In this document: one piece after another, positions 48,931 through 54,689 of the stretch | Layout: each line of letters starts with the position of its first letter | How positions within the stretch are numbered: position 1 is the stretch's first letter | From: Candidatus Marinacidobacterales bacterium | GTDB taxonomy: Bacteria; Acidobacteriota; Vicinamibacteria; Marinacidobacterales; DATDRI01 | NCBI GenBank assembly: GCA_965219415.1 | Contig: OZ244742.1 | Coordinates: 672,001-736,000, forward strand | Length of the DNA: 64,000 nucleotides | Direction: 5' to 3' | Program-made: the position numbers and the translations under genes | Notes under the pieces: generated by a model | What the model was told of the DNA's origin: nothing | What the model saw: only the letters and a program-made list of their open reading frames with translations | The model's database searches: none

Positions 48931-49404
48931 CGGCTCCTTCGCGGTCACGTGCCGCTGATCGTTCGGTAGCACATAGCAGCAGATCAACGGAGCGAGACAA
49001 TTGCCTTCTCATACACCGCAAGCGTGGTTTGCCTCCGGCACCGAAAACGAACCTTCTCGCGACCTCCAGCTCTCGAGGCGACATGGGCCTTCTCGCACTC
49101 TGCATACGATGGACGAAAGCGTTTCATACGCCTGCTAGATTCTATAAACGACGCCATCTCTTTGACGTTGTCCCAATGGAAGTCGAAGTCGAACTGAGTC
49201 TCCTGACGAACCACGAAGTGTCCTTGAGTGACAGTGCTCCGAATGGCCCGGTCGGACGCGTCGTCATCGGCTGCCATCCCGGTCGCATCGACCTCTCCAA
49301 CCTGGACCGCCCCGGCACTTACGAGTTCGATCGGGCACTGACCCGGCAGGGGCCGTACATCCACAAGAGTCCCGCGGCCAGCGAGAACCCGCCAGATTTC
49401 GTGC

Positions 49405-49423
49405 AGGGCATGGACCATGCCCT
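49405..49423 (-). promoter_or_regulatory. SECIS-like hairpin after the UGA-UGA
   Basis: AGGGCATG-GTC-CATGCCCT: perfect 8-bp stem starting 10 nt after the second UGA. Confidence 0.7.
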
Positions 49424-50713
49424 CGTGTGGTAGTCATCACAAGGACCACGCTAGGACGGCGATGTCGAAGGTCTCGGCGGAGCGTGTCAACAACATTGAG
49501 ACACCCGCGAGCTGCATTTAGTGGAGCCTCGATTGGTGTCAGGAGGGTCGTGACGTCGATTTTGTCCACGTCTGCCTGGATCGAGATCTCTTACGTGGAG
49601 CGGAAAAAGGGGCTACCCCAGGTATGGACCACCCAGAGAAAGTGGCTCCTAGGCGATCCTCGCGCGTGTTTTTGTCAGGTGGGGGGTTGATCCAAGCCTG
49701 AGACGGCAAAACAGGGGTTGAGGTTTTCCACGGACGAAGCGTTCGGGATGAGCCCGATGAGCGGCGAGAAGCGTGTGTCGGCGAGCCGCGTTGAGTTGTT
49801 CGGCGCGACCCTGATGAACGACGGCCGGTGTCATGAGACCGATTCCCGAGTGGCGGTGTTCGAGGTTGTAGTAGTCGAAGAAGTTGCGGCAGAACAGGCG
49901 AGCATCCTCGATGGAGCCGAAACGACGCGGGAACTGGGGGCAATACTTCAGCGTCTTGAACTGAGACTCGGAGTAGGGATTGTCGTTCGAGACGTGAGGT
50001 CGCGAGTGAGTCTTGGTAACGCCGAGGTCGGCCAGAAGCAAGGCGACGGACTTGCTTCGCATCGAGCTGCCACGATCCGCGTGGATGGTGAGCTGGCCTG
50101 GTTCGATGCCTTGCTTGCGACAGCTCTCGACGATGAGACGACGAGCGAGCTCGGCACTTTCTCGGTGAGCCAGCATCCAACCCGTGACGTAGCGGGAGAA
50201 GATGTCCAGGATCACGAAGAGGTAGTAGTAGGTCCACTTGACGGGGCCACGAAGCTTGGTGATGTCCCAGGACCAAACCTGGTTGGGGGCTTCGGCCAAC
50301 AGCTCCGGCTTGCGGTAGTTCGGATGGCACAGTTGGTTCCGACGTTCTCTGACTTCCCCCTGCTCCGCCAGAATCCGATACATCGTACGAATCGAGCAGT
50401 AGTAGGTTCCCTCGTCCAGAAGCGTGGCCCACATTGCGGCGGGCACTTTGTCGACAAACCGCTCGGAGTGCAACGCGCCGAGCACCTGCTCTCGCTCGGT
50501 CTCGTCGAGGGCTCGGTGGGGCCGAGGACGACGCTTCGGATTGGACGTCACCGGCCGCCGCCGGCGATACAGCGTGGAGCGAGCCACTCCCAGAGCCTCG
50601 CAGGCTTCCGCTGTCTGTCCAATCCGACCCGCCAGGTCCTCGGCCGCCGCCATCAATCGTTCTCGTCGCTGTCTGGGGGATTCAGGGGGATCCCCAGGAG
50701 CTCGGAGGCTTTC

Positions 50714-52322: not shown

Positions 52323-53699
52323 CTAAGAAACTCCGGTGTGCGGACTCGATGCAGCCGCCTCTACCAACGTGTAGCCTAATTGACGAGCGCGACGCTGGAG
52401 GTTGTGGAGGACCCTCTCCTGATAATGTCTCTCGTAGTAGTCGGTGCCAGGATCGACATAGGCGAGTCCGAAGCGAACGGCGTTGTAGAACAGCACTGCT
52501 AACTTTCTCGCTGTCGCGGTCACTGCCTTCGCCTTGCCGACTCGTGCGCCCACTCGACGGTAGAATGCACCAAGGGCGGTCTGCGTTCGCCCAACGTTCA
52601 CCGCAGCGATACGAAAGAGCGCGGCGGCGCGATTCGAGGACCGACGCGACTTCGAACTCAGCACGCGGCCGCCCGAGATCTTGTTGCCGGGTGCTAGGGT
52701 CAGCCACGACGTGAAGTGTTTGGCGGTCGGCCATTTCCGCATGTCGTCACCGCATTCGGCGACGAGTCGCAGAACCGTGTACGGACCCAATCCATGGATC
52801 TGGCTCAAATCGGCACCCAAGAGGGTATACAGAGCTCCCCGTACATCGAACTTCGGTTCGTTCTTCCCGCTCGCATGTCGGACACGTGGAATCGGCTCGT
52901 CGGGCGCAGTTCGATCGTGGTTCAGCTCGCCTATAGCGGCTTCGACCTCCACGTCGCATTCGGTGACCCTCGCTTGAACGAAGTCATAGAGTTGGAGCTC
53001 ATGGCGTAGCGCGAAGAGGTGTTCGAGCCGGTAGTTACCTGTCAGAGCCTCGCGGATCGTTTCGACAGATTGCTTGCATCGGACGTCACGGTACTGGGCA
53101 AGCACGTCGGGCTCGTGAACACCGCCGACTATAGCGCGAATGATCTTCATGCCCGTGACACCTGTAATATCAGTCACTACGTGCTGAAGCTGGACGTTCA
53201 TCTGCATAAGGGCTTTCTGCATCCGCTGGATGTGCGTCGCTGCCTGGTTGATGAGGCGTTCACGGTGGCGAAGAAGTGCCCGGAGCCGAACCAACTGACC
53301 ACGAGGCCGGAAGCTGCCGCGAAGAAGACCATGCTCGTGCAGCTGCTGTAGCCACTGAGCATCGTTGACGTCGGTCTTCCGCCCTGGGACATTCTTGACG
53401 TCACGTGCGTTGACCAGGAGCACCTCGAACCCGCGCGCTTCCAAGATCTCGAAGGCTGGAATCCAGTACACTCCTGTCGATTCCATAGCGATGGTGGTGA
53501 TCCCGACCTCTGCGAGCCAGTCGGCCAACTGGTGTAGGTCGCCCGTGAAGCTTCGAAACGTCCGCACGGACATCTCGACCCGCTCCGGTGGGACCGCAAC
53601 CACATGGAATGTCGCTCCGATGTCGATTCCTGCGGCGTTAACGTGGATGGACGTAATGGATCGTCTGGACGACTTCCGGCGCTTCCTTCTTGTCATCAT
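52323..53699 (-). CDS. IS110 recombinase, same protein as copy A
   Basis: Same 458-aa translation. Confidence 0.95.
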   Translation of the reverse strand: MMTRRKRRKSSRRSITSIHVNAAGIDIGATFHVVAVPPERVEMSVRTFRSFTGDLHQLADWLAEVGITTIAMESTGVYWIPAFEILEARGFEVLLVNARDVKNVPGRKTDVNDAQWLQQLHEHGLLRGSFRPRGQLVRLRALLRHRERLINQAATHIQRMQKALMQMNVQLQHVVTDITGVTGMKIIRAIVGGVHEPDVLAQYRDVRCKQSVETIREALTGNYRLEHLFALRHELQLYDFVQARVTECDVEVEAAIGELNHDRTAPDEPIPRVRHASGKNEPKFDVRGALYTLLGADLSQIHGLGPYTVLRLVAECGDDMRKWPTAKHFTSWLTLAPGNKISGGRVLSSKSRRSSNRAAALFRIAAVNVGRTQTALGAFYRRVGARVGKAKAVTATARKLAVLFYNAVRFGLAYVDPGTDYYERHYQERVLHNLQRRARQLGYTLVEAAASSPHTGVS

Positions 53700-53871
53700 T
53701 CCTCCTTCCGGATTAAACCCGAAAGGAGGGATGGGCGGAAGTTCATCATTTTCCTAAACGGGATCGCCAAATGGCGCCACCACTGTCAAGTCCGCAGCCA
53801 CCCCCGGACCATGTTTTTTTACGGGATCGAAATCACCAGTAAGCGGACGGCCTCTCCTCTCGAGTAGCCAA
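53700..53871 (-). ncRNA. Candidate bridge RNA of IS110 copy B
   Basis: Same sequence as 52091-52262. Confidence 0.7.
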
Positions 53872-54689
53872 GAGGGTAGCCGTCAGGGAGTTTCTGGTTC
53901 AACAGGAGGCGCGCCCGCGCTCGAAGGTTTTTTTGGATCTCGAGCATCGTTTCCACCCGAGCGAGGCGACGCTTCAGTCGCGTGTTCTCGCGCGCGAGTT
54001 CCTTGATTCGAGGATCCTCGACCTTGCCCTTTCGTCCCCGCTTGATCGCGGCGAGCCCGACCCCCGCCATCTCATCCCGCTGGCGACGCCAACTCGACAG
54101 GAGCGACGAGTACAGTCCTTCTCGACGCAGAAGCGCTCCCACATCGCCATCACCCTTGCAGGCATCCGCTTCGCGCAGTATCCGCAGCTTGTACTCCGCG
54201 GTAAAGCGTCGACGCTTCGCTTGTTCACTCACTTCGGGATCCGGGGCCACCACTGCTTCGCGGCTGGCGGGTTCTACAGTCGCCCTACCGGCTCCTTCCG
54301 ACCCCGCCAAGTTCGTCTTCTCAGTCAACAGACTCATTCATGATCCTCCTCCGCCTTCCACACTAATTTCAAGGGGCGAAGTGTCTCAAGCATGTTGGCA
54401 CGGAGGGGTGCGGAATGGCAACGCCAGAGCAGTCGCCCGTAGAAAGCCTACACGCTGCCGAAGCTGCGGCGCACAGGCCTCAACGGCTGCGGCTAGCTCT
54501 TTCTCCTGAGGCTCGATGCCTACTACGAACGCCGACGCATTCGCATACCGGAAAGCCAGTCGACCGTCTCCCGAGCCAACTTCGAGTACTCTCGCGTTGC
54601 TAAAATCCGTGGCCTGCAGGAGAACCTGGGATTCTACTCCGTTGGGGTCGAGTTCAGTCGCCATCTCGTGTACTCCATGAAGAATCGCG

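Follow-up and report, generated by a model that had tools for sequence, protein, structure and literature searches.

We report here that the window, i.e. the whole stretch of 64,000 nucleotides analysed from contig OZ244742.1 of a Candidatus Marinacidobacterales bacterium, very probably holds a gene, formerly an integron cassette, for a class I methyltransferase of 249 residues with two adjacent selenocysteine (Sec) codons, and that this gene belongs to an apparently uncatalogued family, named here after its motif WSL-[Sec/Cys]-[Sec/Cys]. The gene lies on the minus strand and is interrupted by a nested insertion of mobile elements (Table 1; coordinates are positions within the 64,000-nt stretch unless another contig or locus is named). 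When the insertion is removed, 54664-54409 joins to 49477-48984 and a single frame of 249 codons results, encoding a class I S-adenosylmethionine (SAM) methyltransferase in which a TGA-TGA pair directly follows strand beta4. The original prediction, made from the letters of the sequence, had proposed exactly this reconstruction, and all of its coordinates, including those of both TGAs, checked out, with the length of the rebuilt frame matching that of uninterrupted homologues.

Table 1. Features of the interrupted methyltransferase cassette in the window.
Feature	Position	Strand	Description
attC of the preceding cassette	54690..54821	-	perfect GTCTAAC and GTTAGAC boxes; fold z -3.63, 0/200 shuffles as good
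N-terminal gene part	54409..54664	-	85 codons + 1 nt; SAM-binding motif I LEVGSGDGR
IS3-family element inside the gene	49478..54408	-	orfA 53819-54337, orfB 49649-50656; 1,715 bp without its own inserts
Two tandem IS110-family copies inside the IS3 element	~50713..53918	-	period ~1,610 bp, 99.9% alike; transposase open reading frames 50714-52090 and 52323-53699
C-terminal gene part	48984..49477	-	164 codons including both UGAs; coding 49477-48987, stop TGA 48986-48984
UGA-UGA (predicted Sec-Sec)	49434..49439	-	TGAs 49439-49437 and 49436-49434; directly after strand beta4, motif WSL-U-U
SECIS-type hairpin	49405..49423	-	8 bp, from 10 nt past the second UGA; GUC loop 49415-49413 closed by G-C
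Probable attC of the methyltransferase cassette	48838..48930	-	GTTAGGT and imperfect GTCTAGC (one RYYYAAC mismatch); weak fold, z -1.17

The two stretches represent two halves of one domain, since together they cover the Pfam profile Methyltransf_25 from end to end, the N half aligning with the first 62 of its 97 positions and the C half with positions 62-97. The N half alone already exceeds the Pfam cut-offs of Methyltransf_25 (31.6 bits, cut-off 27), Methyltransf_11 (24.0 bits, cut-off 21.2) and Methyltransf_31 (28.2 bits, cut-off 27), and the C-terminal 120 residues matched no Pfam family. Compared with the intact homologue L010, the N half is 79% identical and the C half, with two in-frame TGAs, 72%. 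The start codon ATG is located at 54664-54662 and is preceded by GGAG nine bases upstream (54676-54673).

Evidence for reading through the two UGAs comes from 90 homologous loci in other genomes and metagenomes, all of them uninterrupted and in frame, of which 54 carry TGA-TGA, 22 TGA-Cys, 12 Cys-TGA and two Cys-Cys at the dipeptide (UU, UC, CU and CC forms, respectively). TGA thus stands at one or both codons in 88 of the 90 loci, and TAA or TAG in none. A comparison of this aligned position had been suggested together with the original prediction, and all four forms were recovered. Ten of these loci were found with the C half (five genome and five metagenome contigs; eight UU and two UC, both of the latter from Anaerolineaceae) and 80 with N-terminal fragments (46 UU, 20 UC, 12 CU and two CC, which are shares within a selected set and not frequencies), with L066 sharing a contig with L014. 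In all 80 the profile match spans the site, and not a single one has TAA or TAG there. Both CC-type loci among the 80 (L086 and L112) come from archaeal metagenome-assembled genomes (MAGs), labelled Thermoplasmata and Heimdallarchaeota.

Ten out of eleven aligned full-length database relatives have WSL-Cys-Cys, the eleventh being without that segment, and in an alignment of 23 sequences the invariant columns were W96, L98, both dipeptide positions, L117 and G121. When 1.84 billion representatives were searched with a profile, 93 matches at E up to 1e-30 resulted, and the best 150 representatives gave 152 stretches in the HMMER alignment. These comprise 74 fragments, known as proteins only, that end right before the dipeptide, ten that end after a Cys at its first position, 41 full-length CC forms, 13 C halves and three stretches that do not cover the site, as well as 11 full-length proteins with other dipeptides (HE three times, AC twice, and YC, WW, GW, CY, WN and HH once each). 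A quick FastTree phylogeny of 113 rows implies at least 25 changes among the UU, UC, CU and CC states. Two single sequences deviate in a different manner: the database homologue P0031 (219 aa; 55% identity over 98% of the length) is without exactly the dipeptide segment, which may be an artefact of gene calling or assembly or a natural deletion, and the UC-type Chloroflexota locus L092 (1495-1554) has a further in-frame TGA about ten codons past the hairpin described below, where relatives have Trp or His, which may be a sequencing error, a sign of a pseudogene or a third recoded codon.

Downstream of the UGA pair the transcript would fold into a hairpin of the type of a bacterial selenocysteine insertion sequence (SECIS), with a GC-rich core of 7 bp at a distance of 11 nt from the second UGA and 14 nt from the first. 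A hairpin with a G-GUC-C apex, 10 nt downstream and resembling that of the formate dehydrogenase in the window, had been part of the original prediction; its 8 bp were confirmed and its conservation could now be assessed in a gap-free alignment of 87 sequences, covering 60 bases from the first dipeptide codon, in which helix columns 17-24 face columns 28-35. Helix cells are paired in 95.4% of cases, compared with 19-57% when the partners are slid by 1-3 columns. Compensatory changes occur in five out of eight pairs, with 37 cells altered on both sides, and none of 500 shuffles reached any of the five measures. Examples are the change from GGC/GCC to AGC/GCU and that from AUG/CAU to GUG/CAC, the latter exchanging Met for Val together with a synonymous change of a His codon. 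Moreover, the loop G is invariant and the loop U nearly so. The formate dehydrogenase SECIS of the host has the same geometry (UGA 15203-15205, 11 nt distance, 7-bp stem, GGUCU loop).

The same hairpin appears to serve both codons. Its position is unchanged in the UC forms, where the UGA is 14 nt away (22 loci), and in the CU forms, where the distance is 11 nt (12 loci), which indicates that one element can serve either codon and hence both, and RNAalifold predicts over the 60-nt stretch only that hairpin and no second one. The suggestion that one SECIS might suffice for two adjacent UGAs thus gains support from natural variants. At gathering thresholds Rfam had no match within the window. In comparison to the fdhF-type bacterial SECIS, taken in its E. 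coli geometry and as measured in the formate dehydrogenase of the host, the hairpin is alike in its 11-nt spacer, short GC-rich stem and G-U loop, but differs in having no bulged U and a loop of 3-5 nt, and in that it must serve UGAs at both 11 and 14 nt. We envisage that SelB bound to the hairpin would deliver Sec-tRNA to the upstream UGA first and that, after one translocation, a second SelB complex would deliver to the downstream UGA, with the hairpin still at the mRNA entrance.

The machinery for such decoding is encoded in the host genome, where selA (569.7 bits), selB (375.8), selD (328.3) and tRNA-Sec (69.7) all score above their cut-offs, so that the search for Sec genes proposed with the original prediction turned out positive for each of them; the host selD itself has an in-frame TGA. 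Among the five homologue-bearing genomes, selD was above cut-off in all five and selB in four. Overall, the reading of the two adjacent UGAs as selenocysteine codons, recoded through one SECIS hairpin, is well supported by these comparative data.

With an intact homologue as query, no NCBIfam model scored above its cut-off, the best match being CpaM, a corrinoid-protein-associated methyltransferase (45.5 bits, cut-off 180), and NF041537 (20.0 bits, cut-off 510) and NF047649 (methyltransferase/UXPK-star; 14.4 bits, cut-off 460) remained far below theirs. Members carry public names such as ‘hypothetical protein’, ‘SAM-dependent methyltransferase’ or ‘UbiE’. A description of the WSL-UU family was not found in the literature searched, where a mention in the original MduS paper or in supplements is possible; the word methyltransferase is absent from the deep-Sep paper, and a 2026 review (PMC13188914), whose table spans 119 prokaryotic selenoprotein families, lists no UU motif and no other matching methyltransferase. 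Sec-type ArsM proteins and their fusions (NF008823, NF041536, NF041537; motif UxxG), which have Sec in place of a substrate-binding Cys near the active site, offer a plausible analogy for a soft acceptor, but they contain a single Sec in another motif, and arsenic genes lie near no scanned WSL-UU member. RebM (3bus), TleD (5gm1) and other small-molecule methyltransferases of the Methyltransf_11/25 type, the best solved relatives at E 1e-16 to 1e-15, share the beta4 motif FD-x-[AV]-...-SL; they differ in being without Sec, and the match is limited to the N-terminal 125-140 residues, leaving the C-terminal half of the family unmatched.

Hints to a putative function come from the position of the dipeptide. 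In the class I fold the loop after beta4 lines the methyl-acceptor site. The nearest solved relatives are 5gm1, 3bus and 6uv6 (E 1e-16 to 1e-14), and the dipeptide aligns, right after beta4, with HH of 3bus and CH of 5gm1; the RebM histidines have reportedly been proposed as catalytic. Conserved residues comprise an N-terminal DP...E, LE-x-G-x-G-x-GR, FD at beta4 and the dipeptide itself, whose 100% conservation in that set is circular, because the sequences were picked for having it. As a tentative proposal, the two selenols might bind a soft thiophilic acceptor, or activate it, so that it can be methylated; this could be a metalloid such as As(III), Sb(III), Se or Te, or else a metal ion or some reactive electrophile. 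Such an activity would suit a self-sufficient detoxification gene, as cassettes often carry.

The genomic context fits an integron cassette. The original prediction had placed attC sites on both sides of the gene, and attC-type sites were found at both sets of coordinates (Table 1), the 5’ boundary and the well-folding upstream site being clear and the downstream one, a probable attC, imperfect and weak. The methyltransferase cassette starts within GTTAGAC, 32 nt before the ATG, and the same distance is kept in L010, L015, L016 and L017; in addition, L010 and L017 have a homologue of the 5’ part of the downstream site. Few further sites emerged when the window was scanned strictly for attC. 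An 88% copy of the downstream attC-like site is located 58 kb away in the genome, at C1:779335-779427, beyond the integrase. This integron integrase (TIGR02249, 341.9 bits, cut-off 265) is encoded at C1:736836-737778 (L031:1495-2443), 0.8-1.8 kb past the window end and about 12 kb from the methyltransferase gene. It is co-oriented with the cassettes, which lie past its 3’ end, and it matches the profile in two overlapping pieces in different frames (profile positions 85-315 and 1-91), so that it looks frameshifted. The arrangement resembles chromosomal integron cassettes in that a single promoterless open reading frame (ORF) is bounded by G|TTRRRY sites and a probable attC hairpin, intI is close by, and unrelated hosts carry the same cassette. 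It differs from usual cassettes in that the cargo needs the Sec machinery of its host, in the co-oriented and apparently frameshifted integrase, and in an array riddled with insertion sequence (IS) elements.

Phylogeny points to a movement between hosts. The window gene falls into a well-supported clade of seven UU genes, which is nested among Chloroflexota genes; of the remaining six, four are on metagenome contigs, one is from an Acidobacteria MAG and one from a Desulfobacterales MAG. Among 40 relatives of the host only one has a family member, and that one is distant; the C half was unmatched among the PLSDB plasmids. No shared partner gene was detected among 148 neighbouring ORFs (18 + 130) of family members, recurrent neighbours being lineage-specific only (XdhC, amidase, zinc alcohol dehydrogenase, adenylate cyclase and baeRF). 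Considering that the neighbours differ by lineage and include no metal or selenium genes, the methyltransferase seems to act alone, as far as gene neighbourhoods can suggest.

Several other explanations for the tandem UGAs have to be weighed. Gene callers annotate the two halves as separate genes, which might also be subunits of a split methyltransferase, with TGA-TGA as a true tandem stop and a restart at a downstream ATG (MVHAL). Consistent with this, 26 out of 27 proteins from a database search with the C half are 129-159 aa long, all 16 aligned C-half matches begin at that Met, five codons past the UGAs, which indicates that gene callers stop at the UGAs everywhere, and GAGG stands just ahead of the ATG. 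However, the GAGG, just 2 nt from the ATG, belongs to the covarying stem. Furthermore, in-frame conservation extends over the five codons that separate the stops from the ATG, Cys replaces one or both stops in the UC, CU and CC forms, and a break at this point would interrupt the Rossmann fold between beta4 and the helix that follows. Separate halves with variable TAA or TAG stops had been named beforehand as the case that would speak against a selenoprotein; what was found instead is the complete absence of TAA and TAG from the 90 loci, together with Cys homologues and a conserved hairpin, and we regard separate genes as extremely improbable. Much the same holds for a reading of the UGAs outside the Sec pathway, by near-cognate suppression with Trp or Cys or in a reassigned code, or for recent nonsense mutations in a pseudogene, to which the window copy would lend itself as it is already a pseudogene through the IS insertion. 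The gene itself ends in TGA in the window as well as in eight out of ten homologues, so that the code is not reassigned, and members from different phyla, at protein identities of 35-80%, retain the UGAs together with a covarying hairpin, in the presence of selB and selD, which leaves this explanation with hardly any probability.

Two further alternatives accept the selenocysteines and concern the identity and the chemistry of the enzyme. The original prediction had pointed to MduS, a family of double-selenoprotein methyltransferases, and indeed both families combine a class I methyltransferase domain with two Sec residues, and many WSL-UU members belong to Chloroflexota, the phylum that had been named for MduS. 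The connection did not hold: on the MduS model NF045649 the intact homologue reaches 16.6 bits (E 0.003; cut-off 380) and aligns only over profile positions 43-140, i.e. the generic SAM-binding part, and the model has 338 positions, compared with about 245 in the WSL-UU family. The MduS motif is CxxU, and not adjacent UU, in the row for Haft and Tolstoy 2025 of the table in PMC13188914. Among 301 Chloroflexota genomes no MduS was above cut-off, and the best partial matches differ in the motif after beta4 and have a rhodanese-like tail, so that membership in MduS is highly improbable. In the best partial match, L035 (Chloroflexota G258), an in-frame TGA comes after the methyltransferase, and the rhodanese-like region beyond it also ends in TGA; this gene may be a relative of MduS below the cut-off. 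More difficult to weigh is a Sec-Sec pair that serves in the same selenoprotein not as a metalloid ligand but as a covalent nucleophile, like the motif IV Cys of pyrimidine C5-methyltransferases, as a Se-methyl relay, or as a diselenide redox switch that gates activity. The dipeptide occupies the place of the catalytic residues of motif IV, selenolates combine strong nucleophilicity with good leaving-group character, metal-resistance genes are absent nearby, and the best NCBIfam match, below its cut-off, is the corrinoid-associated CpaM. On the other side, no RNA- or DNA-binding domain is present, and the C-terminal 120 residues are unmatched in Pfam. We consider such other chemistry less likely than not; it stands as a candidate beside the tentative soft-acceptor proposal.

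The selenoprotein cassette interpretation, which we prefer, also has its weak points, and these weigh against it. Selenium incorporation in family members is predicted from comparison of sequences, and if every single insertion were as poor as in E. coli, the decoding of two UGAs in a row would be expected to be inefficient. The 80 loci were chosen by their likeness to fragments that end at the dipeptide, and such a query inflates the share of Sec forms among them, while the representative fragments are known as proteins only and their stops are not confirmable as TGA. With respect to function, it is the alignment, together with general knowledge of the fold, that would place the dipeptide beside the SAM methyl at the acceptor site; arsenic, mercury or selenium genes numbered zero among the 148 neighbouring ORFs, and neighbourhoods are heterogeneous. 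The lack of metal genes nearby leaves the metalloid idea without support from context. Regarding the cassette, the downstream attC is imperfect and intI is apparently split into two frames.

The copy in the window is a dead, IS-inactivated cassette relic, so that a function can be ascribed to the family, but not to this genome. Accordingly, the claim of a mobile selenoprotein cassette with its own SECIS stands in its core, but not for the window copy as a working gene. The inserted element shows the characters of the IS3 family, namely an orfA with HTH_Tnp_1, an orfB with an rve core and TG...CA terminal inverted repeats, and it splits the gene 14 codons before the Sec-Sec pair. Two further genomic copies and an intact copy of 1,715 bp (57807-59521), when aligned with it, fixed its ends at 49478 and 54407/54408; an in-frame join is obtained only with the end at 54408, and the length of this join is exactly as in uninterrupted homologues (LPFR-x-E-TFD). 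The junction at 49477/49478 is bridged by contigs of public runs from two studies, so that the insertion is not an assembly artefact, and the same IS at other insertion sites gives rise to loose ends at 49477/49478 in public contigs. The uninterrupted allele was not seen, the contigs of four public runs showing the IS junction only, and no RNA run is listed among the holders.

A target-site duplication, usual for the IS3 family, was not found, as none of 2-5 bp is compatible with the frame and length of the gene. An inversion between two IS copies was worked through as a cause of the missing duplication and gives no explanation. Near-identical direct repeats of 7 nt (CGGAGCG, CGGAGGG) lie just outside the TG...CA repeats of every IS3 copy (49478-49484 and 54401-54408 here; also in the copy 57807-59521), and no copy has a target-site duplication.

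Taken together, we consider it fairly probable that the WSL-[U/C][U/C] methyltransferases form an unrecognised selenoprotein family of very wide distribution, in which one SECIS serves two adjacent UGAs, Sec and Cys have been exchanged repeatedly with the hairpin fixed in place, and one clade moves between phyla as an integron cassette. Among the best 150 representatives, at least 84 clusters at 50% identity have a product that ends at the dipeptide; most of these clusters belong to Chloroflexota, Actinomycetota and Acidobacteriota. Adjacent Sec-Sec is absent from the motifs of the 119 families of the 2026 review (PMC13188914), and the family provides a natural test of SECIS reach, as a hairpin in one fixed position acts on a UGA 11 nt away, on one 14 nt away, or on both. 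The family also exposes a systematic annotation error, with public records cutting the genes into a ‘UbiE-like’ protein of 98 residues and a hypothetical protein of 145 residues. A selenoprotein gene on a cassette further implies that selenium-dependent traits can move horizontally, solely into Sec-decoding hosts, and a vicinal diselenol at the acceptor site of a methyltransferase, if the alignment holds, would point to a chemistry undescribed for this enzyme class.

Besides the methyltransferase cassette, the array includes further mobile elements, i.e. a pair of IS3-type ORFs (47473-48629), a Mutator/IS256-type transposase (56512-57429), the intact IS3 copy already mentioned, an rve-type transposase (60050-61003), and an IS91-type transposase beside a tyrosine recombinase (62398-63998). 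Cassette-sized ORFs between these elements include glyoxalase and DinB folds. Elsewhere in the window, the alpha subunit of the formate dehydrogenase (14953-16870, plus strand) has Sec in the motif SCNRT-U-HAPS with a canonical SECIS. Downstream of it, 16886-18730 encodes a NuoF-like subunit with 90% identity to that of a ‘Candidatus Marinacidobacterales’ MAG.

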